Of a DNA stretch of 63,908 bases, positions 207 through 13,120 are shown piece by piece. The DNA is from a virus. Lineage: Duplodnaviria > Caudoviricetes. The translations under genes were made by a program, and so were the position numbers. The first letter of the stretch is position 1. The number at the start of each line of letters is the position of its first letter. The stretch is from positions 1 to 63,908 of the IMG/VR virus record IMGVR_UViG_3300048033_000958. The stretch is one strand, 5' to 3'. The notes beneath the pieces are model-generated. The model had not been told where the DNA came from. It saw only the letters and a program-made list of their open reading frames with translations, and searched no databases.

Positions 207-431
207 CTATCCCTTTTTGGCGAACTTCTCAATCCCAGCAATACCAAAACAACCTAATGTGATAATCACAAACGAATTGTAGATGAACTCTTGTACTACC
301 AAGTCCTTACCAAAGTATCCAGTTACTAAATCAGCAAGTGCAAATACTACCATTACTGCGAAGGACATAAATCCAATCACATTTTTTTCGTTGTAATCGT
401 TATTGTCTTTGAAAATCTCTTTGAAAGCCAT
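207..431 (-). CDS. Small two-TM membrane protein, holin-like
   Basis: Two hydrophobic helices and basic C-terminus (EKFAKKG); AGGAG before ATG at 431, alternative start at 458. Confidence 0.5.
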   Translation of the reverse strand: MAFKEIFKDNNDYNEKNVIGFMSFAVMVVFALADLVTGYFGKDLVVQEFIYNSFVIITLGCFGIAGIEKFAKKG

Positions 432-482
432 AATCTTTCTCCTAATGTATTTTAACATAACATAACTCCTTTAGTATAAGTA

Positions 483-1016
483 TTACTTATTTTGATTAAA
501 ATATTCTAATATATCTTGTTCTAAGATATAATCCATTACAAAGTTATTACCATACATAATACTTGTAAATGTGCCTGTGTCTTCTTCGGTTATCTCTATA
601 ACATAATCAACTTCGTTATAGGTAAGTTGATAACTCTCACTTTTTCGTACTCTTTGAATACTCTTGTATTCATCACTACGTTCAACAACTTCTTTATCAC
701 TTAGGTCAGGTACATTTATAAGTTTGGTAACACAACTTGCATAATTTGTTTTTAGTGTATCTACCAAGAATACCTCATCCATTTTAGTCATTAAGTAGAG
801 TCGTTGAACTTTATTCAACCCACCTGCCTTAAAATCTCCTGTGAACTGAACGATGGGTAGTGTGAGTAATGCATCTTTTGTAGCATCTTTTAGTCGTGTG
901 AAATCAACGACTTCAGTTACTTGTCGTGGGTGTCTTATATTCTTATTGAAGGGCATCAGTAATATATCGTAAAAAGTACATACATCAAACTTCCCCTCAA
1001 CACCACTATACATCAC
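483..1016 (-). CDS. Hypothetical protein
   Basis: 177-aa ORF with AAGGAG upstream, abutting the upstream gene. Confidence 0.6.
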   Translation of the reverse strand: MMYSGVEGKFDVCTFYDILLMPFNKNIRHPRQVTEVVDFTRLKDATKDALLTLPIVQFTGDFKAGGLNKVQRLYLMTKMDEVFLVDTLKTNYASCVTKLINVPDLSDKEVVERSDEYKSIQRVRKSESYQLTYNEVDYVIEITEEDTGTFTSIMYGNNFVMDYILEQDILEYFNQNK

Positions 1017-1606
1017 TACTCCTTATCGGATGCGTACTTCACACCCATAATTGTACCCACAATTGAAAATGCGTTAGTTAATAAGATACCAAACATATTA
1101 GACCAAGTAGACCCAATAATTTGAGTGTCTTGCCCTGACATTAGTGCAATTCCATACATAATTGTAGTTACAATACCCACCCCAATTATTATCACCAAAG
1201 CAACCCTTACGATTGTACCTATAAGTTCAAATTGAGATTTTTTCTGCATTAGGTCCAAATCTTCCAATGCTTTGTCTTTAGATTTCTCGGCAGCTTCTCT
1301 AAGTTTATTTGCTTCTTCTTCAGATTGTTGGGCAGAGTCCAATGCATTTTGAAGTTCAATCATCAAATCATCAGTTTCTTCTTGCTTTTTTACCAACTCC
1401 TTGTTTTGTTTCTGAACTTGCTTGGTTACTTGAAGTCTTTTTCTCCGTGCAGTAGAGTCTTTATCTTTACATTGATTTAGATAGTTAATAACCTCAACAT
1501 CTTCATCACTTGGTTTTAATACTTTTAGAATATTACCTTCTAAGTATACTTTTTTTTCTTTGGCAAGTTTTAGTAAAGAATCTCGTGATAACTCATTTAG
1601 TTTCAT
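1016..1606 (-). CDS. Coiled-coil protein with two C-terminal TM helices
   Basis: K/E/Q-rich helical region followed by two hydrophobic segments; downstream of the response regulator in the same gene run. Confidence 0.65.
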   Translation of the reverse strand: MKLNELSRDSLLKLAKEKKVYLEGNILKVLKPSDEDVEVINYLNQCKDKDSTARRKRLQVTKQVQKQNKELVKKQEETDDLMIELQNALDSAQQSEEEANKLREAAEKSKDKALEDLDLMQKKSQFELIGTIVRVALVIIIGVGIVTTIMYGIALMSGQDTQIIGSTWSNMFGILLTNAFSIVGTIMGVKYASDKE

Positions 1607-1609
1607 AAC

Positions 1610-2107
1610 CTATTTCTCTTCTAATAACTGATTTAATTGTATATTCTTCAATCTCAAATCAAAGGTTTGCTTTTGTAACTCCTCGATTTTACTCTCCAAG
1701 TCCTCTCTATACATTTTAGAGATATCCACTTCATTAACCTCAGATTTTTTTGATTCAATTTTTTGGGTGATTCTTCTAATGTTACTTAGAGCACTAATAG
1801 CAATTACAACCCACCCCCAATTCATAGGAGTCCAATCAACATCTGTTGTGAAATGTATTACAACAAATATAATTGCCATTAAACCATATCCATACCCAAA
1901 TAACCTTCTTCGTTCTAAGCTACTATAAACAACTGAATGAAGTGTACCATAACCAATCAACATACTAATGATAGCAACATACCATAAATCTGGAAAGAAC
2001 TCAGCTTCCAATACAACTGGTGCAAAGATGAACCATATCAATCCCTGCAAAACCTCAGTTGGTTCTGAATCGTGGTACGTTAAGATATGTCCTAATTTTT
2101 TTATCAT
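1610..2107 (-). CDS. Multi-pass membrane protein with C-terminal coiled coil
   Basis: About 4 hydrophobic segments; start overlaps the response regulator stop. Confidence 0.65.
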   Translation of the reverse strand: MIKKLGHILTYHDSEPTEVLQGLIWFIFAPVVLEAEFFPDLWYVAIISMLIGYGTLHSVVYSSLERRRLFGYGYGLMAIIFVVIHFTTDVDWTPMNWGWVVIAISALSNIRRITQKIESKKSEVNEVDISKMYREDLESKIEELQKQTFDLRLKNIQLNQLLEEK

Positions 2108-2550
2108 CTATAAACTTTAAATGGATTTGTTTTATTCAAGTATCCATCGTAATCACTACGGAACTCTTCTAATCTTGGTTCAATGTCATCAGACTTAATA
2201 ATCCAAAATTGAGCACCTGCTGCTTTTGCTTTTTCAATTTCTTGGTTGTCATCTGATGATGAAATAATACCAATCACACACCCATTACCATAATCAAAGT
2301 TAATCTTTCTAATAAGTTCGATACCATCAAATGAAGAGCCAATGATATTCAAATCAACGAATACACATTCAGGTCTTTCGTGGTTGGGGTCATCTGGAAA
2401 CCATGCCTTAAATAATTTATCTGCCTCATCAGAAGAGTTAAGTGCTTCTAACGATAGAGTTATATCTAAGATACTACATGCATCTTCAAATACCAAGTGG
2501 AATAAATCCTCATCATCCACCAATAAAATAGAGTTAATCATATTGTTCAT
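2104..2550 (-). CDS. Single-domain response regulator (CheY-like receiver)
   Basis: LLVDDED acidic pocket, FVDLN phosphoacceptor Asp, IISSS, WIIKS conserved Lys; no output domain. Confidence 0.92.
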   Translation of the reverse strand: MNNMINSILLVDDEDLFHLVFEDACSILDITLSLEALNSSDEADKLFKAWFPDDPNHERPECVFVDLNIIGSSFDGIELIRKINFDYGNGCVIGIISSSDDNQEIEKAKAAGAQFWIIKSDDIEPRLEEFRSDYDGYLNKTNPFKVYR

Positions 2551-3797
2551 TTTAATTTTATCCTTAATTTAGTTCCTGGATTTACTTTTTCTGCCCTAAT
2601 TTCAAAACCATGCTCTTGTAAAATTGAAATACAAATATTCAATCCCAATCCAGAGCCACCTTCTTTTTGCCCGTCTTTCCTTACATATGGTCTGGATAAA
2701 TTTAGAAATTCTTCTTGAGTTAAACCTCTACCATTATCTTCCACACAAAGTGTAGAGTCGTTCTCCATATAAATAGTGATTACTTTAGTAGAACTATCGT
2801 TATATTTTAACCCATTTCTAATTAAATTATCAATGGCCGTGCAAAAGAGTGGTTCGTTTACTTCTATTGTTGGTAATCTATCTATTGCTACTTGTTTTAT
2901 GTAAGATGTGGATGACAAGTAGTTCTTTAATATTTCACCTAAATTGTGCTTTTGTTTTTCAAGTTGTACATCTTCTTTAACCAAGTTTGTAAACTCTTTT
3001 ACACCAGCATATACCTTTTGTGTATGTTTTAATCCTTCCTCTAACATTCTTAGTGGAGCACCTATTCTTAACTCTTTTATAGAATCTTCAGACAATCTAC
3101 GATTTAGTGATGATAACCCCCGTGGCATATAAGTGTTAATACCACTATGCATATCGTGTCTTAGAATTTTAGCAGCGTGTTCTAAGTAAGCATTTTTCTG
3201 ACTAACGATTTCTTCTGCTTCGTGTTGTGCTGTAACATCGGTGGCTACCTTTAATATTTTATCGTATTGACCTTTTGCGTTTCTGATAGGAGTGTAATTA
3301 CCAAATAACCATCTTTTTGACCCATCTTTTCCTACTCGTTCAAATTGACCAGTGATACTTTCACCACTTCGTAATTTTTCCCAAAATTCTAAGTATTCTT
3401 TACTTTTAGCATATTCGGGTGTAACCATTCTACTATGGGGTTGTTTTTTGATTTGACCCTCGGAACACCCCATAAGATTACAAAAGTTTGGATTGGCAGT
3501 TTCAATATAACCATCCATTGTCAATGTTACTACTAAATTTGATTTACTGATACCCTCTAATTGAGAATCAATCTGCTCTTCCTTTAGTTTGATATTTGAA
3601 AGGAACTCAGAAACAACCATAAAGAATGGTGGCATAAAAGCAATAACACACCCATATCCAAACTTAGCCAACTCTATACTATTTTCACATACCCCAAATA
3701 CAATACAAGATTGTACCAAGAAGAATGTAAGCATAATGGCAGCTGCGATACCTAATGCGATTTTTGATTTTCGCGACATTCCATCTAAGAGTGTCAT
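2547..3797 (-). CDS. Membrane PAS/PAC sensor histidine kinase
   Basis: Two N-terminal TMs, PAS/PAC, H-box LRHDMHS, N-box NLIRNGLKY, G1 EDNGRG, G2 GSGLGL. Confidence 0.93.
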   Translation of the reverse strand: MTLLDGMSRKSKIALGIAAAIMLTFFLVQSCIVFGVCENSIELAKFGYGCVIAFMPPFFMVVSEFLSNIKLKEEQIDSQLEGISKSNLVVTLTMDGYIETANPNFCNLMGCSEGQIKKQPHSRMVTPEYAKSKEYLEFWEKLRSGESITGQFERVGKDGSKRWLFGNYTPIRNAKGQYDKILKVATDVTAQHEAEEIVSQKNAYLEHAAKILRHDMHSGINTYMPRGLSSLNRRLSEDSIKELRIGAPLRMLEEGLKHTQKVYAGVKEFTNLVKEDVQLEKQKHNLGEILKNYLSSTSYIKQVAIDRLPTIEVNEPLFCTAIDNLIRNGLKYNDSSTKVITIYMENDSTLCVEDNGRGLTQEEFLNLSRPYVRKDGQKEGGSGLGLNICISILQEHGFEIRAEKVNPGTKLRIKLK

Positions 3798-3798
3798 C

Positions 3799-3987
3799 TT
3801 ATAACTCCGACTTCTTCAGTCCTAATTTTTCAAATAACCATTTTGAAGGGCAAAACTTAGTCCATACCCCAACATTTAACATAGCGATAACGAATACTAC
3901 TACCCACCAATTGTTTAATAATAATCCTACTAATAACACAATTGACATAAGTAAGTATACCGCTCTTACTGAAGTCCAATTTTTCAT
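3799..3987 (-). CDS. DUF2892/YgaP-like small membrane protein
   Basis: 62 aa, two TM helices followed by FCP motif. Confidence 0.65.
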   Translation of the reverse strand: MKNWTSVRAVYLLMSIVLLVGLLLNNWWVVVFVIAMLNVGVWTKFCPSKWLFEKLGLKKSEL

Positions 3988-4100
3988 TACATCATCTCCA
4001 ACATTCCAAAGACTGCGACTTTGATTCTAATCCACAATCTTTGCTTCCAAGGTAATTCTTGGAATTGTTTTGTTTTAAAAATATCTTCTAATTCTTCCAT
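3987..4100 (-). CDS. Small hypothetical protein (37 aa)
   Basis: Manual translation MEELEDIFKTKQFQELPWKQRLWIRIKVAVFGMLEMM; fills the gap, stop overlaps next start. Confidence 0.5.
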   Translation of the reverse strand: MEELEDIFKTKQFQELPWKQRLWIRIKVAVFGMLEMM

Positions 4101-4241
4101 TTAATCTCCGCAACAATATGTTTCACAACTATCTAAATAACTATTATTTGGGTTACCTTTTGTTAGATAACCTACTTCGTAATCGGGTTGACTCGAACAC
4201 GATGACATTATTACCGATATTAATATAATATACTTTATCAT
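4101..4241 (-). CDS. Small putative lipoprotein (46 aa)
   Basis: Manual translation MIKYIILISVIMSSCSSQPDYEVGYLTKGNPNNSYLDSCETYCCGD; hydrophobic leader ending SS-C; start overlaps amidase stop. Confidence 0.55.
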   Translation of the reverse strand: MIKYIILISVIMSSCSSQPDYEVGYLTKGNPNNSYLDSCETYCCGD

Positions 4242-5119
4242 AGTGAAGCAAGCATATCTAATAGTTCCTGTTGAGGGAACATATCGAATTTATCTTTACG
4301 AGTATTGGTATGTGTCCATACACCCTTAACTTTACCATAGTATGCATCTTCATTAAATTCAAATGCATCAGCACCTTTTTCTTTTACCAATTCCGGCAAT
4401 CCTTTTCTGATGTCAATACCATCTCTTTCACCAATCCAAAGAATCCACTTTCTAAGTGCTTCGATTTGGTCATCGGAATACTTATGCCAAGTTTTGAATC
4501 CTCTAAATGGTTTGTCTAACTCAACCAATTGAGATTCGTGAACTCGTGTACCGGCATATGTTTTACCATCTTTAATCCAACCAAAATTACACACTTCAAT
4601 TCCTACTGAATGAGTGTGCATATGTTGTGACCCATTCTTACCCAAATGCCATCCATAACCACCTTCGGGGAATGCTTGTACCATTACACCATCGTGGTCT
4701 TCATTGTTACCTTTTACGGATGGACCACCTAATACAAATTCAGTTGCTACTGCACCACGAGAATCCCTTCCCCATTGGTCGATGCAATTGAATGGGTTGT
4801 GCCACCCCGCGGTGTGATGTAAGAATACATATTCTTTATTTGTTGGACCAACCTTATATTCACCTTGGGGTAAATAATGTCTATTAACGATTAGACCATT
4901 TTCCGTTTCAAAAGTCTTTTCCGAGTCATCAGTAGTAGCGAGACCCATAGCATCCCAAGTGGAAGGACCCACAAGACCATCAGCATCAAGACCATTGGCC
5001 TTTTGAAACTCTTTAACTGCTTCTTCAGTTCCTTTACCGAAAATACCATCCGCTCCTATTCCTAAAAACTCTTGTAAATCTTTTACTTGTTTTCCACGAG
5101 AACCAACTTTTAGTAACAT
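4238..5119 (-). CDS. N-acetylmuramoyl-L-alanine amidase with peptidoglycan-binding domain (endolysin candidate)
   Basis: PG-binding motifs DGIFGKGTEEAVKEFQ and DGLVGPST; amidase motifs LHHTAG, SVGIEVCN, HTN..KFD. Confidence 0.88.
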   Translation of the reverse strand: MLLKVGSRGKQVKDLQEFLGIGADGIFGKGTEEAVKEFQKANGLDADGLVGPSTWDAMGLATTDDSEKTFETENGLIVNRHYLPQGEYKVGPTNKEYVFLHHTAGWHNPFNCIDQWGRDSRGAVATEFVLGGPSVKGNNEDHDGVMVQAFPEGGYGWHLGKNGSQHMHTHSVGIEVCNFGWIKDGKTYAGTRVHESQLVELDKPFRGFKTWHKYSDDQIEALRKWILWIGERDGIDIRKGLPELVKEKGADAFEFNEDAYYGKVKGVWTHTNTRKDKFDMFPQQELLDMLASL

Positions 5120-5534: not shown

Positions 5535-5772
5535 TATGGATTATCCTTAACTTTTTAATTTTCTCCAAGAATTCTTCTACGGAATAAGATTTTGATTTTT
5601 CATCTTTGATTACCACTTCTTCTAAAGTGTCGGGATACTTTTCTACCAATCTTACAAGAATACCAAATCCTTGGTCTGCCCAAAAGTTTTTGAACGAAAC
5701 CTCACCTAATATATTAGTAGAGAAGTCTACTGATTCTTCGGTGTCACCTGGTAGTAATATAAAGTATCTCAT
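5527..5772 (-). CDS. Hypothetical protein
   Basis: 81-aa ORF whose start overlaps the GT2 stop. Confidence 0.65.
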   Translation of the reverse strand: MRYFILLPGDTEESVDFSTNILGEVSFKNFWADQGFGILVRLVEKYPDTLEEVVIKDEKSKSYSVEEFLEKIKKLRIIHNG

Positions 5773-6956
5773 AGATTAATTAGGTCGTTCTCGTAATGTT
5801 TTACTCGATTCACCTTTACTTTAAATATGTCGAATTCGTACTCACCACTCTCAAATTCATTAAAATCAAAGATTTCCGATAGGTTTTGAATGAAGTTAAA
5901 TGAATTTTGTGTTAGTTTATTTGCGTCAAATCTAACAATTATATCTGAATCTACTTGTTGGTTGATTCTCTCACTCAAGTTGAACTGAGTATTTGGTTGT
6001 TCTAATTTAATGTATTCATCGATTTTTTCTTGTGGTATGTCCACATTGATGTTACTACACCAAGGTTCTAACATATTCAATATTTGCTCGTTAGCATTGA
6101 AAACTCTGAACTCTACATCGTACTTGTGAGGAACGATTGGTTTCATTAGTCTATCGTGTTTCACAAAATGACCCCACTTACGAATAAAGTTACGAGTCGA
6201 ACGAATGTTTTGTGCCAACCACTCATCAGATTCCTTACCAACCTCAGTTAGTGTTGGATTAAATCGTGACCCTCTACAAGTCATATGGTATACACACCCA
6301 TCCCAAGTCTGAATAAGTTCGTATCCATTTAGAAGGAATCGGTTGAAGATGTCAGAATCCTCTTTTGATTGAGGTGCGTATAATGGGTCATGTCCTCCGA
6401 TAGATGTAAAATCTTCTTTGAACAAAAACCAAGGTGCAAAGATACCCTCAGTAGGTTTATCATATTTGTATCTATCCTCACCACTTACGAACCACTCTAA
6501 GAACTTCTCTTCATCGAAGTCTTCAGGCTCAGTCTTCCAATCCATCAAAACCTTCTCTGGTCCATCTGGGTGAAGTGGTGGTTCAATACGAGTGAGTGAT
6601 ACCACCGTCATTGGTTTGATATGTTCTAATACCGATTCCAATGCACCAGGACACAAATACATATCTGCGTGGTAGATACCCACAATCTTTGTAGGAGCAA
6701 CCTCGTTGATTAGTCTATCATATAAGATAGTATGGCCCAATCGTGTTGGTCCTTCGTTTCGGATTGCTTTGAAGTTGGAGTCCTTCTCCATCATCTCTTG
6801 ACACCATTCCCAAGTTCCATCGTTACTAAAGTCATCAGCAACACATATGGTTGGCTCTTCACCTGCGTTCTTTCTGATACTATCGTAAGACCACTTGAGG
6901 TATTTCAAGTTGTTACGAGATGGTTGTATAAACGATATATCGCTTTTAGTCATCAT
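5769..6956 (-). CDS. GT2-family glycosyltransferase
   Basis: VADDFSNDGT, HADMY, EDSD motifs of the GT-A fold. Confidence 0.85.
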   Translation of the reverse strand: MMTKSDISFIQPSRNNLKYLKWSYDSIRKNAGEEPTICVADDFSNDGTWEWCQEMMEKDSNFKAIRNEGPTRLGHTILYDRLINEVAPTKIVGIYHADMYLCPGALESVLEHIKPMTVVSLTRIEPPLHPDGPEKVLMDWKTEPEDFDEEKFLEWFVSGEDRYKYDKPTEGIFAPWFLFKEDFTSIGGHDPLYAPQSKEDSDIFNRFLLNGYELIQTWDGCVYHMTCRGSRFNPTLTEVGKESDEWLAQNIRSTRNFIRKWGHFVKHDRLMKPIVPHKYDVEFRVFNANEQILNMLEPWCSNINVDIPQEKIDEYIKLEQPNTQFNLSERINQQVDSDIIVRFDANKLTQNSFNFIQNLSEIFDFNEFESGEYEFDIFKVKVNRVKHYENDLINL

Positions 6957-6957
6957 A

Positions 6958-7617
6958 TTATTTGTGTATTTTTAATCTTCCAGATTCTTCCAATTGGTGA
7001 ATTAGTTCTCTTTCACTATTGAAATTATGTCCCAATTGCTCTGCCTTGAATGGTACTTTTTCAAAATAATGGTAGTCGTATCCCTCTTCCCAAAATGTAA
7101 AACCATACATATCGATACTTTCGAAGTTAGATAATAGTAACATCATCATCACAAACCCAGCAGTTGGTTCTTGACCAGGTGTGTATTTTGATACCTCCAT
7201 TACAAATTGAGGATTTATGAAAAATAGATTGTGTTTGTTTACATTAGAAAATACACCTTTCATAAATTCCTCAACATTCCACGTTTTACATATAATGTCT
7301 TGTGGTGGGAGTGATGGTAGAAAGTTTGGATGGGCAGTTGGGTTTCTATCTACTTTAGTAGTACCACCGAAGCAGTGACCATTAACCAATCTTAATGTAG
7401 TCTTCGAACCTACATACTTTTCAAATCCAATTGTAGGTGCGTGGTTAAATCTGATTACCACATCGTAGTTATCAATCTCACTACCCCATTCTTTAGATTT
7501 CATCAAACCACTATTACCAACCAAACACACTTTGGAGTTTTTAGGAAGGTTAAATAGAATAGGATATGATGTAGTAAGAAATGGCGACATTTCTACATTA
7601 TTCAATGAGATTTTCAT
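6958..7617 (-). CDS. GT29 sialyltransferase-like protein
   Basis: Sialylmotif L (VGNSG..GSEIDNYDVVIRFNHAP..VGSKTT), S (PTAGF..MYGF), III (HYFE), VS (HNFNSE). Confidence 0.88.
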   Translation of the reverse strand: MKISLNNVEMSPFLTTSYPILFNLPKNSKVCLVGNSGLMKSKEWGSEIDNYDVVIRFNHAPTIGFEKYVGSKTTLRLVNGHCFGGTTKVDRNPTAHPNFLPSLPPQDIICKTWNVEEFMKGVFSNVNKHNLFFINPQFVMEVSKYTPGQEPTAGFVMMMLLLSNFESIDMYGFTFWEEGYDYHYFEKVPFKAEQLGHNFNSERELIHQLEESGRLKIHK

Positions 7618-8480
7618 TTTTTCAAGTCACCTCTTAGTTTTAATAATGCAGGCATCTCAGAGTCAAGAACTCGTTTTTCAGAACTACCCATTGCTTGATT
7701 AACTTGGTCAATATACTTTAGTATGTATTGTATTCCTTGTAATTCCAATGAACCAGGGTGGTCAGTACCTTTCATACTTCTACTCAAGGTATAATGTCTC
7801 TCAATGATACGAGACCCCATCATATATGCAGCGATGTCTGGAGCAACACCTGCGTGGTGTCCACTAAATCCAACACTATCTACGATACCATCATATCGGT
7901 TTTGATACATAGGAATTACATTCAAGTTCAATTCATTTTCTGGAGTAGGGTATGTACTCGTACATTGTAGTAGGTGTAACTCATCATTATTTTTTAAGAT
8001 TTCAACTGCGTTATCTACATCTGAAATATCGGACATACCTGTACTTAAAATGGTTGGTAGTTTTGTGTCTGCTACTGCACGAAGTAAGTCTAAATCTGCA
8101 GTACGTTGTGATGCAATCTTTAATCCAGTTGTTCCAATCTCTTGTAAGAAGTCTAAACTTGGTTTGTCGGTGAACGAACTGATAAAGTCAAAACCCGCAG
8201 CTTCTACATAGTTTTTAAGTTCAATGAAGTCATCTTTAGACAACTCCAATGCCTTTCTATGTTCGTAGTAGGTTCTACCAAAAGAATTTGGGTTATCATA
8301 AATCATTGCCTTTTGTTCTTCGGACAAACAAGTGTCTATGTCTCGTTTAGCAGTTTTGATACAAGATATAGGTAGTCCTTTTAGACTATCTACCATTTTT
8401 TTTGCAATGTTAATATCACCTTGGTGATTCTGCCCTATTTCGGCGATAAAATAAATTGGGTGTTCGTTGTTTACTTTCAT
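7614..8480 (-). CDS. neuB: Nonulosonic acid synthase (NeuB/NANS family), no C-terminal SAF domain
   Basis: IAEIGQNHQGD, LKIAS, ILSTGMS, QCTSTYP, GFSGH, IERHYT, GTDH. Confidence 0.9.
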   Translation of the reverse strand: MKVNNEHPIYFIAEIGQNHQGDINIAKKMVDSLKGLPISCIKTAKRDIDTCLSEEQKAMIYDNPNSFGRTYYEHRKALELSKDDFIELKNYVEAAGFDFISSFTDKPSLDFLQEIGTTGLKIASQRTADLDLLRAVADTKLPTILSTGMSDISDVDNAVEILKNNDELHLLQCTSTYPTPENELNLNVIPMYQNRYDGIVDSVGFSGHHAGVAPDIAAYMMGSRIIERHYTLSRSMKGTDHPGSLELQGIQYILKYIDQVNQAMGSSEKRVLDSEMPALLKLRGDLKK

Positions 8481-8494
8481 AACTCGTGTATTGA

Positions 8495-9064
8495 TTATAT
8501 ATTATATTTTTCTTTTGCTTTATTAAAAAAATCAAGTGTATCTGGCCATAACACTACGATACCAAGGTCAATTAATTTTTGAAAATCTTTAACAGTATCG
8601 GATTGTGGGTGAGATTCTCCTTCGAGTATCATACCTTCTTGATTTTCATAATGCTCTTTTACATAAAATGGGTGATTTTGATAGAATGAAAACCCAGTAA
8701 CAAATACTTTACTAAACCCAGTTAACCATAAATTTATGGCAACATATACACCCATATTTGGTTTTGTACCACTAAACTCAAATCCATCTGGTCTGATGTA
8801 TTGTGATGTCATCGTTCTGCCTTTTAAAAATACATTTTGAACACCAAATCTATACTGAACTTCTCGAATTCTATCTCGATTATTTTCTTGCCATTGCTTA
8901 TTTACAAACAAAAAATCAGTTCTATGACCATAGTCCTTGAAATTTTGGATTTCGAATGAATTATTCATTCTTGCTACATAACCCATATTGTCTATACTCT
9001 TACCCAACCCCATACCTTCTAAGTGTGGTGATGGTCCTACTAAGATTGCGGTTTGTGCAAACAT
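8495..9064 (-). CDS. Divergent GT29-like glycosyltransferase
   Basis: VGPSPHL..G..ID....RMN..DYGHRTD (L-like); NMG..TGFSFY (S-like); C-terminal His. Confidence 0.7.
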   Translation of the reverse strand: MFAQTAILVGPSPHLEGMGLGKSIDNMGYVARMNNSFEIQNFKDYGHRTDFLFVNKQWQENNRDRIREVQYRFGVQNVFLKGRTMTSQYIRPDGFEFSGTKPNMGVYVAINLWLTGFSKVFVTGFSFYQNHPFYVKEHYENQEGMILEGESHPQSDTVKDFQKLIDLGIVVLWPDTLDFFNKAKEKYNI

Positions 9065-9626
9065 AACTTTTCCTTCTTAAACTTGTTGTAATAATAAGTA
9101 GTATCCTCCAATAGAGTAATATTGTAATTTTCAATAAAATATTGTAAGTTAGATACATTTTTGAATTGGTCGTGACCTATCTTTGTCTTGAATTGTACAT
9201 TACAATCAGGGTCGGATGGGTTTTCTGATATATACTTATCTGAATATTTTGCATTTGTTTGATAAAATGAGTAACCCGTTAGTGAGATATCACTATAACC
9301 CATATCTAATAAGTTAAATACTGCTATAATTCCTAAATTGCTATTAGTATTGTATGGCACTTTGTATTTTTTACCAATCACCGATTTAAGTTGTCGGTGT
9401 TTTTTGTAAATATTTTTAGCAGGAATACCATATTCGGATTTAAGATACTTATCAGTTACATTACGAGAAGACCACCCATTTAAAAATAACATATCAACTC
9501 TACTACCATAGTCATTAGGTAATTCTTTCATTAACTTATAACCTTGGTTCATTCGAACTATGATGTCGTAACTATCTATCAAATTACCCAACCCCATACC
9601 TTCTAAGTGTGGTGATGGTCCTACTA
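9000..9626. repeat. 43-bp perfect direct repeat at 9000-9042 and 9584-9626
   Basis: ttacccaaccccataccttctaagtgtggtgatggtcctacta occurs twice, encoding VGPSPHLEGMGLG in both GT29-like paralogs. Confidence 0.95.
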
Positions 9627-9648
9627 TTAAAACACGAGACTTATTCAC
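9040..9648 (-). CDS. Divergent GT29-like glycosyltransferase (paralog)
   Basis: VGPSPHL..G..IDSYDIIVRMN..DYGSRVD; NLG..TGYSFY; C-terminal His. Confidence 0.72.
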   Translation of the reverse strand: MNKSRVLIVGPSPHLEGMGLGNLIDSYDIIVRMNQGYKLMKELPNDYGSRVDMLFLNGWSSRNVTDKYLKSEYGIPAKNIYKKHRQLKSVIGKKYKVPYNTNSNLGIIAVFNLLDMGYSDISLTGYSFYQTNAKYSDKYISENPSDPDCNVQFKTKIGHDQFKNVSNLQYFIENYNITLLEDTTYYYNKFKKEKLCLHKPQS

Positions 9649-10172
9649 TTTAAATCTTCTTTATAGTGTACCTCAGTTCCATTTGTAGTAACTGCACCCA
9701 AGTAATATGATACATCTCTATTTGATTGTATGATTGACTTATCTAAAATCATAAGTCCATTCTCAACACCATTTTGGTCAAAACCACGAACCTCTTTTAA
9801 TTTATGAGATTGAAGTGTGGTGATACCTTTATTAATATCCGATGTTTGATTTCCTGGACAATTTGCCATTAAGGAAACGACTACATCATACTCTATATCC
9901 AAATTGTAATATGCGAACCTAAGTATAGTTATCAACTTGTCTTCATCACGAGTTGCATTTTTTGGTCTCCAAATAACACCTATATTGTTTTCTAAACAAT
10001 AGGACTTAATGTAATCCGAGTCAGTTATTACATATACATCATCTACCAACTCGGAATCCAACAATGGTTGAACGGAGTTCATAAACATAGGAACTCCATT
10101 TACCTTATGAATATTTTTATTTGGAAATCTATTTGAATTTTCCTTGGCAGCTACTAATCCTAATACTTTCAT
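9645..10172 (-). CDS. Short CMP-ulosonate synthetase (cytidylyltransferase, NeuA/KdsB family)
   Basis: AKENSNRFPNKNI, VITD, WRP motifs. Confidence 0.75.
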   Translation of the reverse strand: MKVLGLVAAKENSNRFPNKNIHKVNGVPMFMNSVQPLLDSELVDDVYVITDSDYIKSYCLENNIGVIWRPKNATRDEDKLITILRFAYYNLDIEYDVVVSLMANCPGNQTSDINKGITTLQSHKLKEVRGFDQNGVENGLMILDKSIIQSNRDVSYYLGAVTTNGTEVHYKEDLK

Positions 10173-10174
10173 AC

Positions 10175-10855
10175 TTATCTCTTTAACATAAATTCTGCTA
10201 AATCAAACTCAAATTGGGTATCAATATCTATTGAACGATTTCGTGGCATAAAGTATCCTTTGGTTTGACCAATGTAATAATTTTTGTTTTCTTTTAACTT
10301 CGAAGTCCACGAGCCATATAAAGCACCATTTGGTCTATAAACCATTGGGTGGTCTTGACTCCTACTATTACCATTTTGCCAAGGTTGAGTTTGGTCGTAA
10401 TCTTCTACGATGTTGTTATTTTTCACAACTAACCCAAGTGTGGGTGGGAACTCCATTTCGGTATATGATAATACTGAATCATCATTTTTACTCAACAACT
10501 CAGATGCTTTTATAAAGTCATCTGAAATCTTCATAGGTGATGTTGGTAGTGTTAACCAAGTTTGCTCGTATTCTTCATCTAAAAAATGTAATACCGTATC
10601 TATTACCTTTGAAGTATCGGTTGCCAACTCAAGTGGTCGTTTAACAACATCTAAGATTGTCGATGAGTAGTTTTTAGACACCAATGATAAAATCTCATCA
10701 TCATCTGAGGTGAATATTACTTTATCAAATACACCCGAATTTATTACCGAATCAATAGTATAGAACACCAATGGTTTACCATTTAGAGGTTTGATGTTTT
10801 TTCGTGGTAATCTTTTACTCCCCCCACGAGCAGGAATTACACATAATCTTTTCAT
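10175..10855 (-). CDS. neuA: Acylneuraminate cytidylyltransferase (CMP-sialic acid synthetase family)
   Basis: IPARGGSKRLPRKN, PTSP, NGALY, SIDIDT. Confidence 0.9.
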   Translation of the reverse strand: MKRLCVIPARGGSKRLPRKNIKPLNGKPLVFYTIDSVINSGVFDKVIFTSDDDEILSLVSKNYSSTILDVVKRPLELATDTSKVIDTVLHFLDEEYEQTWLTLPTSPMKISDDFIKASELLSKNDDSVLSYTEMEFPPTLGLVVKNNNIVEDYDQTQPWQNGNSRSQDHPMVYRPNGALYGSWTSKLKENKNYYIGQTKGYFMPRNRSIDIDTQFEFDLAEFMLKR

Positions 10856-11484
10856 GCTTTCTTAAATATATAATACCCCATCGGTTGTCCTGTTACAGTT
10901 TTTTCATAACCTTTATACATTTGGGTATATTGATTAGATTTAAACTTAGAAACCAAATCCATCTCATTTATAATAAGGCCTCTAAGGTAGTTGTTTTTAT
11001 AATCACTTTGTGACTTTGTAATATCACCCAATTTCACTTGAATTGCGATGTATTTTGGTGATATCACATTAGTCCAAATATCCAATACCTTATCAAGATA
11101 ACTTTCAGTCGGGAAATGTTGAATGACTTCGTTACATAGTATCACATCAGGAGCAGGTCCTTCATATTTAACTAAATCAATGTCATTATCTATTAATTGG
11201 GAGTATTTAATCCTTGGACAATATTGTAGTGCTGATTTTAAACTATGCTCAACGAGGTCAACACTATATACTTCGTAATCCAAATCTACTAATTTTTTAG
11301 AAATAAGACCACCACCACATCCCCAATCTAAAATAGAATTTATATCCTGTGAATTGGATATGGGGGATATCAAGTGTGTTGTAACCCGATTTAGTATACG
11401 AGTGGTTTTTTCTTCACCCATCTCAGATACTATATGGCGCATACCTTTATTTACATTTGTCCAAAATTGCTTAATGTTTTTCAT
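10852..11484 (-). CDS. Class I SAM-dependent methyltransferase
   Basis: ILDWGCGGG motif I, VDL, EVIQHF. Confidence 0.85.
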   Translation of the reverse strand: MKNIKQFWTNVNKGMRHIVSEMGEEKTTRILNRVTTHLISPISNSQDINSILDWGCGGGLISKKLVDLDYEVYSVDLVEHSLKSALQYCPRIKYSQLIDNDIDLVKYEGPAPDVILCNEVIQHFPTESYLDKVLDIWTNVISPKYIAIQVKLGDITKSQSDYKNNYLRGLIINEMDLVSKFKSNQYTQMYKGYEKTVTGQPMGYYIFKKA

Positions 11485-12239
11485 CTTAAATCATCTTTCA
11501 ATAAATCTACCATTTCTTCAAGAGGAAGTACTGAATCTGCATCCGAGTATGATAATGGTGGGTTTGGGTGTGCTTCTGCGAATACACCATCATAATTGAA
11601 AATATCAGTTGCTTTGAAATATCGTGCTGCCAAAGTTGGGTTACCGCCCATTCTACCATTTGGTTTTGGTAATTGTGCTGCGTGGGTGGTATCAAAGATA
11701 ACCTTATCAAAGTGTTCTTTCATAAAGTCAACACTTGAAAAGTCAACAACAAACTGAGAATATCCAAATGCAGAACCCCTTTCAGTCACCCAAACACTAC
11801 AATCAGGATTGGTGTTTTTCAACTTATCAATACCCTTTACCATATTTTGTGGATTCATCCATTGCCCCTTCTTGATATTAACCTCATTAGAACATCTTGC
11901 AGATTCAACCAACAAGTCAGTTTGTCTACACAAGAATGCTGGGATTTGAATCAAGTCAACGACATCTGAAATCTTTTCTACTTGATGTGTTTCGTGTACA
12001 TCAGTAGTAACCTTGAGACCAGGAAAGTCTTTCTTCAATTGTTTGAAGATTTCCATACCTTCTTCTAAACCAGGTCCTCTTTTACCTGTAATGGAACTAC
12101 GATTTGCTTTATCATATGAACCCTTGAAGTAAAAGTTTGAATCCTTTACATATGGGTAAACTGCCGATAGAACTTCGTGTGATAATTCATAAGTCTCTAA
12201 ACTACAAGGACCTATGATGTATGTTTTATCTTTACTCAT
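11481..12239 (-). CDS. kdsA: KDO-8-phosphate synthase
   Basis: GPC, YDKANRSS, TDVHE, QIPAFLCRQTDL, KKGQ, ERG, DTTH, EAHP, SDAD. Confidence 0.93.
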   Translation of the reverse strand: MSKDKTYIIGPCSLETYELSHEVLSAVYPYVKDSNFYFKGSYDKANRSSITGKRGPGLEEGMEIFKQLKKDFPGLKVTTDVHETHQVEKISDVVDLIQIPAFLCRQTDLLVESARCSNEVNIKKGQWMNPQNMVKGIDKLKNTNPDCSVWVTERGSAFGYSQFVVDFSSVDFMKEHFDKVIFDTTHAAQLPKPNGRMGGNPTLAARYFKATDIFNYDGVFAEAHPNPPLSYSDADSVLPLEEMVDLLKDDLR

Positions 12240-13120
12240 AATACTTTATTAAGTGCGTTTATAATTTGCTCAGTTTCGTTTTGTGTTGGTTGATTAAAAG
12301 GTCTTCTATCATTTTGTATGAAACCCATTTCTTTTAAAGCAGTTCTCATTGACATATGCCATCCTATTTTCATAAAGGTTTCAAACATAGGACTTTCAAT
12401 TTGATAGATGATTTCCTTTGACCCATATAAATCATTCTCAAAATACTTTTTATAAAACACCTCTTCCCACTTTGGATTAAATGACCCAACACCTACTAAA
12501 TAAGTAGTTGCCCCGTGTGGTTGTAATGCCCAAAATCGCTTCATACTTCCACCTGCCACAATAACCTCTAATGTATTGGGTATGTTTGTAGTGGAATGCA
12601 TTAAGTTTCCTGCCTCTTCTTTCATACCCACAAACCCACTAATCTTACTCAATCTTTCAAGTAAAGGTTTGCTGTATTCGTAAGACCCACCCATTCCACG
12701 TTTGAGTACATTTCCGTGTACAAGAATTGGGTAGTCAGATACCTCACAAATATGCTCAAAGAATTCTACAACTTGGTCATCATTATAATATCTTTCGGGG
12801 AATAGTATCAATAAGGATGTTTGAGAGATATCAAATCTACCATTTAACAACTCAATCTCTTCAATCAAGTGTCTTGTAGATAATTGAGGTAGTCCCAAAA
12901 TAGCATCACCATCAAACCCTACTACAACTTCGTTGAGCTCGCGTACCTCTTCTCTACTCATTAGATTGAATTGAGAAGTACCTGCCGTTGTCATTACAAT
13001 CTTAGCACCTCCATTTTTTAGATGTGTAAGATACTTTTTTGTAGATTCCAACTCCAAGTTCTCATTTTCATCAAATGAAGGTGAAATTGGGTAGATTGGT
13101 CCATTGAATCGTTTTATCAT
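12236..13120 (-). CDS. DapA/NanA-family class I aldolase
   Basis: PSFDENENL N-terminal pattern, AGTSQF in place of GTTGE, Schiff-base Lys in GMKEE. Confidence 0.75.
   Translation of the reverse strand: MIKRFNGPIYPISPSFDENENLELESTKKYLTHLKNGGAKIVMTTAGTSQFNLMSREEVRELNEVVVGFDGDAILGLPQLSTRHLIEEIELLNGRFDISQTSLLILFPERYYNDDQVVEFFEHICEVSDYPILVHGNVLKRGMGGSYEYSKPLLERLSKISGFVGMKEEAGNLMHSTTNIPNTLEVIVAGGSMKRFWALQPHGATTYLVGVGSFNPKWEEVFYKKYFENDLYGSKEIIYQIESPMFETFMKIGWHMSMRTALKEMGFIQNDRRPFNQPTQNETEQIINALNKVL

Follow-up and report, generated by a model that had tools for sequence, protein, structure and literature searches.

The 63,908-nucleotide (nt) stretch of viral DNA analysed here (IMG/VR record IMGVR_UViG_3300048033_000958, positions 1 to 63,908), which we call the window, encodes a sensor histidine kinase, a stand-alone receiver and a coiled-coil protein with a transmembrane (TM) hairpin, cc196, in that order on the minus strand. 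Comparison with relatives indicates that these genes form a three-part module that is old, under strong selection and specific to phages. Its most likely function, as suggested by the genes around it, is a link to lysis, and we tentatively propose, with rather less than even confidence, that it provides signal-gated control of lysis timing, the signal passing from the kinase to the receiver to the cc196 hairpin. An earlier note, made from the letters of the window, had described five minus-strand open reading frames (ORFs) with abutting or overlapping ends as an intact two-component cassette that senses host or envelope state. The five ORFs are as it described them in coordinates and junctions, and its reading of sensing and signalling to a neighbouring membrane protein stands, for cc196, on comparative evidence; what it missed was the link to lysis genes.

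The three genes are found together across a large family. In IMG/VR, relatives of the kinase were present in at least 565 of 600 pattern-matched stretches (80 kept, 57–82% identical), and relatives of the receiver in 143 of 164 (80 kept, 80–95% identical). When 146 loci were searched with tblastn, the receiver was recovered from 146, the kinase from 144 and cc196 from 143. Removal of duplicates left a non-redundant set of 91 loci, to which all counts out of 91 refer. The kinase–receiver–cc196 trio is present in 78 of these, and the remaining 13 lose the missing gene off a contig end, giving 78 of 78 evaluable loci. The same order holds in 9/9 further loci found through the cc196 N-terminal domain and in 6/6 loci binned into metagenome-assembled genomes (MAGs), and in all three sets the N-domain protein is encoded directly after the receiver gene (a further membrane protein, tm165, stands between them where it occurs). 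The neighbourhood is thus conserved across phages, a check that the earlier note had proposed for itself, and this extends to hundreds of viral contigs. Mean pairwise identity, calculated over the same locus pairs, is 84% for the receiver, 76% for the endolysin, 71% for the ribonucleotide reductase (RNR) large subunit, 66% for the holin, and 63% for both the kinase and cc196, making the receiver the most conserved gene of the neighbourhood. Clustering at 90% identity gives no fewer than 3844 clusters for the receiver and no fewer than 7923 for cc196, some from Tara samples. Sequence comparison places the cassette under strong purifying selection.

By its motifs, the 416-amino-acid (aa) protein is a class I histidine kinase, with a DHp H-box and ATP-binding boxes. 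Pfam identifies PAS_3 (E 1.4e-12) and HATPase_c (E 6.7e-14). An N-terminal TM hairpin (∼aa 10–67) with a very short outer loop, seen in hydropathy as segments 10–39 and 48–67 with few residues between, is followed by a cytoplasmic PAS domain (∼aa 86–196), the DHp domain with its H-box (H214), and a CA domain (∼aa 306–416), which bears out the earlier description of a TM-PAS histidine kinase. Structure matches in the PDB link the PAS domain to MmoS and Aer, and the CA domain to CpxA and EnvZ, while kinases 8f71 and 9epn align over residues 199–413, covering DHp and CA. The H-box is assigned on the basis of the alignment and of these PDB kinases that span it; together with the N, G1 and G2 boxes it is invariant in 43/43 kinases (alignment A3). 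A flavin or redox reading of the PAS domain, prompted by the likeness to MmoS and Aer, is not claimed here. PAS-less kinases, in which the TM hairpin is joined directly to DHp, occur in four loci (L120, L125, L139 and L144; 293–301 aa). Elsewhere, one kinase gene consists of two overlapping ORFs and has a different PAS sequence (L145:4271-5535), and in one 163-kb genome the kinase and receiver genes are separated by an insertion encoding a 541-aa protein, in which a short unit containing Gly-Pro-Ala is repeated many times in tandem (L063:7248-8873).

The 148-aa protein is, as judged from the window and its relatives, a single-domain response regulator with no output domain. Response_reg (E 2e-7, 31.6 bits against a cut-off of 30.2) is its sole Pfam match, in agreement with the stand-alone receiver lacking a DNA-binding domain that was described earlier. 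Residues D12, D13, D66, S97/S98 and K119 are invariant in 50/50 receivers (alignment A1), where mean column identity is 88%, and D66 is the predicted phospho-acceptor. Thus the catalytic motifs, previously called intact, are so in both proteins and throughout the alignments. PF00072 was found on all 120 relatives listed. Among 312 candidates, five longer relatives were identified at E ≤ 1e-10: three are kinase–receiver fusions, one has a nuclease-type Pfam match and name, and the fifth joins an unrelated N-terminal part to the last 61% of the receiver. The three fusion proteins argue that kinase and receiver work together and, with the 4-nt overlap of the two genes, lend indirect support to a phosphotransfer between them; since there is no output domain, the receiver must presumably act by protein contact. 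No second receiver was seen with Pfam Response_reg in genomes G405, G406 and G408 (99, 100 and 90% complete, respectively); two of the three show the cassette's own receiver alone and the third shows none. A genome search with PF00072 as query missed the window receiver, although its hmmscan score exceeds the cut-off. The family is easily missed by fast filters, and alignment A1, not PF00072, was the query for receivers in phylum genomes and in complete sister genomes.

The third member, cc196, consists of a small N-terminal domain with a conserved basic helix (∼aa 1–75; alignment A2), a long helical stalk and a TM hairpin (∼124–158 and 162–194), the second helix of which (TM2) is polar and nearly invariant. 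The AlphaFold2 model (predicted local distance difference test, pLDDT, 84) shows two short N-terminal helices, a single helix at 37–157 that enters the membrane, and a TM helix at 162–194. For both this protein and the 165-aa tm165, hydropathy and AlphaFold2 agree with the earlier description of two membrane/coiled-coil proteins. No family in Pfam, PHROGs or NCBIfam matches cc196, and in the protein atlas it falls with viral clusters alone, without a Pfam family and probably including its own cluster. In the fold searches, a two-TM match to the HtrII transducer (E 6.7) was dropped as not significant. Predicted complexes of the receiver (A1) with cc196 residues 1–125 (A2) scored 0.34, 0.30 and 0.25 against a mark of 0.32, without controls, and are counted neither way.

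What cc196 might do is best indicated by its domain swaps. When 1.84 billion representatives were searched with a cc196 profile, 248 proteins matched at E ≤ 0.001. Ten of the longer matches were scanned with Pfam, and six of these ten were read. The stalk and hairpin, with TM2 near-invariant, also occur with the N-domain replaced by a GAF domain (P0278), one PAS_3 (P0300) or two PAS_3 domains (P0294). Conversely, the N-domain and basic helix are followed by HisKA and HATPase_c in P0371, P0384, P0389 and P0391. These swaps suggest that the N-domain is interchangeable with sensor domains and that the hairpin lies at the output end, so that the N-domain would behave as an input module, standing where kinases carry their sensors. 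They also suggest a topology with both ends of the hairpin in the cytoplasm, since the swapped forms have N-terminal PAS or GAF domains. Fusions of the N-terminal part to a FecCD permease (P0317) and to an RNA polymerase domain (P0286) were set aside as possible assembly chimeras, and a scan of IMG/VR with P0389 returned ordinary trios only.

The PAS-PAS-stalk-hairpin fusion defines a sister lineage. It is encoded in 253 viral stretches, of which 80 loci were kept (L168–L247, for example L191:3-1163), and in the 40 of these that were listed its PAS domains are 33–41% identical to that of the window kinase. The phages with this fused form, of ∼32% G+C, share with the window lineage tm83 (49–61%), the holin (62–68%) and RNR (57–62%, for full-length matches), and the fusion often lies directly beside tm83, holin and endolysin genes. 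Profile hidden Markov models found neither the receiver nor the kinase core in any of the 80 fused-form loci, where control loci of the split form gave 146/146 and 143/146, respectively. The receiver was likewise found in 0/2 complete fused-form genomes with terminal repeats (123 and 120 kb), and the same query matched a cellular copy at E 4e-61. The simplest reading is that the sister lineage hard-wires a PAS sensor to the hairpin. Because these phages keep sensor and hairpin and drop kinase and receiver, cross-talk with host regulators, which the earlier note had offered as one outcome, is disfavoured. Its other outcome, signalling to the adjacent membrane proteins, gains support for cc196 from the invariant linkage and the domain swaps, but not for tm165, which is accessory.

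An alternative which reverses the flow makes cc196 an input, as an accessory membrane sensor, and has the free receiver act on the host as a CheY-like switch or phosphate sink. A receiver at 84% identity, with kinase and cc196 at 63% each, is what would be expected for a conserved host partner. The short-loop TM hairpin of the kinase is typical of kinases relying on partner membrane proteins, in the PAS-less kinases the hairpin alone can sense, and one cellular kinase–receiver pair has no cc196. The domain arrangements, however, argue the other way. In the sister phages, which keep PAS and hairpin with no receiver, what stays constant is the hairpin protein; the swapped forms carry the hairpin C-terminal to PAS or GAF, where an output is usually found; the N-domain takes the position of kinase sensor domains and its gene always follows that of the receiver; and the kinase–receiver fusions tether the receiver at the membrane. 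We consider this reversed reading quite unlikely.

The case for lysis comes from the neighbouring genes, which include a Phage_holin_4_1 protein (E 1.2e-8), the Amidase_2 endolysin of the window, a Peptidase_M15_3 endolysin and a third, PHROG-supported, endolysin-like family. A holin or endolysin supported by Pfam or PHROG lies near the split form in 52 of the 91 loci, at a median distance of 198 nt from the kinase-to-cc196 block and within 300 nt in 33. These loci fall into 12 arrangement classes, with the lysis genes upstream in some and downstream in others, and include three unrelated endolysin types. Of the 61 non-redundant loci of the fused form, 42 have a lysis gene, the median distance being 339 nt. 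In the window itself the relay lies between the endolysin and tm83, and hence within what appears to be a lysis cassette. tm83 is a candidate holin or antiholin because it directly precedes the endolysin in other loci; it has no match to a holin family in Pfam or PHROGs.

Holin and endolysin genes are neighbours of both the split and the fused form, and the most likely role of the hairpin is therefore that of a holin or antiholin, or of a protein acting on one. In what follows, phosphotransfer, the docking of the receiver on cc196, the action of the hairpin and the nature of the signal are inferred. The kinase, anchored by its TM hairpin, would read a cytoplasmic signal through PAS and probably also membrane cues through small partner proteins. 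It would autophosphorylate on H214 and pass the phosphate to D66 of the receiver, which, once phosphorylated, would dock on the N-terminal domain of cc196. The resulting change would run down the long cc196 helix to the TM hairpin as effector, and, with the hairpin acting as or on the holin or antiholin, the module would tune lysis time to the state of the infected cell.

Several points weigh against signal-gated lysis. No recognised lysis gene was found in the DNA examined for 39/91 split and 19/61 fused loci, and even among split loci with full flanks, 21/44 have none within ∼5 genes. The locus counts are not independent events, since the loci share descent, and T4-type genomes keep their gene order for non-functional reasons too. 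cc196 matches none of the holin, antiholin or spanin families of Pfam, PHROGs and NCBIfam, and of the 27 PDB folds that its model matched at E ≤ 10, none reached E ≤ 0.001. In the kinase, the Pfam HisKA model has no match on the DHp domain, and no cofactor motif could be assigned in the PAS domain. Finally, conservation is much higher in the receiver than in the phage proteins proposed as its partners, which could point to an additional, conserved host target.

Some of these observations would fit a module with the same wiring in which the hairpin controls another membrane process, such as superinfection exclusion, host transport or energy coupling, or the anchoring of replication or assembly, the nearness to lysis genes being inherited order. 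The 39 split loci with no recognised lysis gene nearby favour this, as does the recurrence of other contexts, with RNR genes upstream or unknown or structural-looking genes downstream; so does the absence of a holin family match for cc196, and a Bac_rhodopsin protein inside the cassette in four loci would suit membrane energetics. Inherited order alone is nevertheless hard to credit, because both independent architectures have holin or endolysin genes only a few hundred bases away, variously arranged and with three unrelated endolysins among them. We regard control of another membrane process as unlikely, and retain signal-gated lysis as the working interpretation.

As to origin, the earlier note had named a recently captured host locus as the finding that would overturn it, and the data do not point to one. 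In 185,579 prokaryote species genomes (one per species) only 10 loci match, all of them MAG contigs; they bear six phylum labels, and five measured contigs range from 39 to 67% G+C. Kinase and receiver are both present in eight of the ten, at least one of which has a T4-type topoisomerase neighbour. The only clear cellular copy found lies on a 967-kb contig of a Bacteroidetes MAG (L150; G001:C1, ∼505.9–519.7 kb), among ordinary cellular genes (TauE, a SoxA-type cytochrome, TetR and an ABC1 kinase); its kinase and receiver are 51% and 61% identical to those of the window, and it has no cc196. The same locus also encodes a 515-aa multi-PAS protein. This pair is what would be cited for a host pair carried as a passenger with no phage-specific role. 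It is, however, the best cellular relative available, such a receiver occurs in 1 of 401 sampled genomes of that phylum, namely the MAG itself, and it stands against the hundreds of viral stretches with kinase relatives, the thousands of receiver clusters and the strong purifying selection described above. Recent host capture thus appears highly improbable.

Cultured phages offer little that is close. The 5.2-kb region had no megablast match among them and the receiver and cc196 had no tblastn match; the kinase matched eight records, none covering 80% and all below 60% identity. Literature searches, and word searches in the accessible text of papers on phages of the jumbo and Far-T4 kinds, pelagiphages, pelagimyophages and viruses of Bacteroidetes, gave no description of the cassette, though the supplements may list such genes. 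The sequencing runs in which the region occurs carry the labels seawater, marine or estuary, and only the first six contain more than one-fifth of the sampled words.

The trio is accompanied by small membrane proteins that vary from locus to locus. tm165 is accessory, being present in 22 of the 91 loci, always between the receiver and cc196. Its AlphaFold2 model (pLDDT 82) has helices at 16–35, 39–61, 64–87 and 94–164, which provide four TM segments and, at the C-terminal end, a long helix in the cytoplasm, and no fold in the PDB matches it at E ≤ 0.001. tm62, with two TM helices and an invariant Cys-Pro motif, precedes the kinase in 47/91 loci, and other small membrane proteins take its place elsewhere. 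The earlier note had called it DUF2892-like. That it is a membrane protein is upheld, but the family call is not, as YgaP-like_TM scores 16.7 bits, below the cut-off of 25.3; at E < 0.01, 3/25 family members match DUF2892/YgaP-like and 5/25 match DUF4395. Four viral contigs carry, all at the same place between tm165 and cc196, a Bac_rhodopsin-family protein of 192–193 aa (Pfam E 1.2e-13, 51.5 bits; L020:8200-8778, L032:8195-8773, L002:7547-8122; also L161–L164). A single-protein query found only close copies of it, and an alignment query was used after. Two versions, only 45% identical, share the one position.

The short-loop hairpin, the PAS-less kinases, the varied small membrane proteins and the rhodopsin in four contigs together suggest that the module gathers both membrane and cytoplasmic cues. 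A more ambitious picture, which we hold to be on the doubtful side, is that of a phosphorelay-gated lysis clock in a marine phage lineage that ranks among the most abundant: the kinase would sense the energy, redox or, with a rhodopsin in the cassette, light state of the host cell; the receiver would switch a hairpin, mounted on its stalk, that opens or holds back the holin; and in the sister lineage the same sensor would be hard-wired to the same hairpin. This would be the first two-component phage lysis decision and would define a new class of receiver-docking domain.

The window virus fragment (63.9 kb; CheckV completeness ∼32%) has all its large ORFs on the minus strand. PHROG matches were obtained for six of ten large ORFs scanned, namely a tail sheath, a family-B DNA polymerase, a DnaB-like helicase, RNR, a carbamoyltransferase and a 2OG-Fe(II) oxygenase/glycosyltransferase protein; the other four had none. 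The nearest cultured kin of the polymerase are Microcystis phage Mel-JY01 (48%) and then T4-like cyanophages (∼31–34%). For the sheath they are Mel-JY01 (58%) and the Flavobacterium phages 'immuto' (53.5% over 47% of the protein), with Rhodothermus phage RM378 (29%) as distant kin. The virus is thus a myovirus of the T4 superfamily, and plausibly one of the uncultured 'Far-T4-like' phages. No integrase was found in the 64-kb fragment, which, with the sheath, polymerase, helicase and RNR genes, accords with the lytic-type phage named previously; no tRNA was found in it either. Bacteroidetes have been suggested as reasonable hosts of Far-T4-like viruses (PMC7198788); from this and from the kinship to Flavobacterium phages, marine Flavobacteriia are candidate hosts. 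The genes around the cassette are listed in Table 1.

Table 1. Genes of the cassette and its flanks in the window, in the order of the minus strand
Feature	Position	Strand	Basis
Endolysin, PG_binding_1 + Amidase_2	4238..5119	-	Pfam E 7.9e-15 and 4.4e-10; PHROG endolysin families
46-aa lipoprotein-like ORF	4101-4241	-	by eye
37-aa ORF, between the lipoprotein-like ORF and tm62	3987..4100	-	ORF call
tm62, 62-aa 2-TM protein	3799..3987	-	ORF call, hydropathy
Sensor histidine kinase, 416 aa	2547..3797	-	Pfam PAS_3 + HATPase_c
Stand-alone receiver, 148 aa	2104..2550	-	Pfam Response_reg
tm165, 165-aa 4-TM/coiled-coil protein	1610..2107	-	AlphaFold2, hydropathy
cc196, 196-aa coiled-coil/TM-hairpin protein	1016..1606	-	alignment, AlphaFold2, hydropathy
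p177, soluble protein without assigned family	483..1016	-	follows cc196
tm83, 2-TM protein with basic tail	207..458	-	hydropathy, neighbour position

The genes from the endolysin, at its head, to tm83 form an array without intergenic space once the 37-aa ORF is counted. That ORF had been overlooked in the earlier gene list, the five ORFs of which are otherwise correct; it resembles a small-protein cluster, c34, which precedes tm62 in other loci (read by eye, unscored). Within the array, tm62 and the kinase are separated by 1 nt, kinase and receiver overlap by 4 nt, as do receiver and tm165, tm165 and cc196 are 3 nt apart, and cc196 and p177 overlap by 1 nt. p177 follows cc196 in 36/91 loci; it has no family match, and its best protein atlas score of 0.83 is a lead only. 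The 46-aa ORF overlaps the endolysin stop and is unique among the 91 loci. It has, by eye, a signal-peptide-like start followed by a Cys and a Cys-rich tail, and may encode a lipoprotein, perhaps spanin-like. Its position holds a Phage_holin_4_1 gene in other loci, which the window lacks.

No promoter could be assigned to the array: the T4 late-promoter word gave 9 matches against 6.6 expected, all on the non-coding strand, and sigma-70-like sites numbered 12 against 23.7 in shuffles. In two seawater metatranscriptome runs, contigs of relatives cover parts of tm83, cc196, the receiver, the kinase, tm62 and the endolysin, which is at most a weak hint that the array is expressed, as RNA libraries may contain DNA. 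Upstream of the lysis region, positions 5769–13120 (minus strand) hold a run of ORFs that by eye resemble sugar-modifying genes, and the start of the 7614–8480 product resembles sialic-acid synthases, also by eye.

Burst size and phage fitness are set by the timing of lysis, which is known to be controlled by holin clocks and, in T4, by antiholins responsive to superinfection. If a phage two-component relay does act on a membrane effector, lytic phages would be able to measure host physiology and act on it post-translationally. The family is very large and many of its members come from marine surveys, so that an effect on lysis would bear on marine carbon release. To our knowledge, the targets of single-domain receivers are mostly unknown, and the N-domain of cc196 is a candidate for a new partner module for them. 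The natural split and fused forms provide a ready experimental design.

Comparison with known systems helps to place the module. CheY, DivK and Spo0F are single-domain receivers of orthodox two-component systems, and the module resembles these in having, after a class I kinase that carries the H, N, G1 and G2 boxes, a receiver with the full acidic pocket, Ser/Thr and Lys, and no output domain. It differs in that the pair here belongs to a lytic-type phage and that the third conserved gene encodes a membrane-hairpin protein without a family. Membership of the chemotaxis system itself is not indicated, as the cassette has no Hpt, CheW or MCP domain and the kinase is not CheA-like, its H-box lying in a DHp next to the CA domain. 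BceS and LiaS are intramembrane-sensing kinases with accessory membrane proteins, and they resemble the kinase here in the TM hairpin with a short outer loop, the small membrane proteins alongside and the variants with no other sensor, but most kinases of the present family carry a cytoplasmic PAS domain, and no ABC transporter or LiaF-like partner is present.

Other systems are alike in what they control. In Firmicutes, LytSR with LrgAB/CidAB exerts two-component control over holin-like and antiholin-like proteins, so that there too the small membrane proteins governing lysis are tied to a receiver and a kinase embedded in the membrane. LytR, however, is a transcriptional regulator with a LytTR DNA-binding domain, whereas the receiver here has no such domain and its control is proposed to be post-translational. 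The LytS sensor, LytTR and LrgA/CidA families have no match in the cassette, and the likeness is one of logic only, without membership. In T4 lysis inhibition, small antiholins bind directly and there is no phosphorelay. The cassette has no sequence relation that we found to that system, and has in common with it a T4-type phage that would adjust lysis time to a signal through holin-acting proteins, which in T4 are the holin T with the antiholins RI and RIII (PMC8385771). Among phages with their own sensory apparatus for an infection decision, the closest comparison is with arbitrium, the phiCDHM1 agr genes and VqmA of VP882. Those, unlike the module described here, are temperate-phage systems that govern lysogeny or induction via transcription factors; the window's T4-type phage carries instead a complete kinase–receiver pair, for which we propose an output at the membrane.

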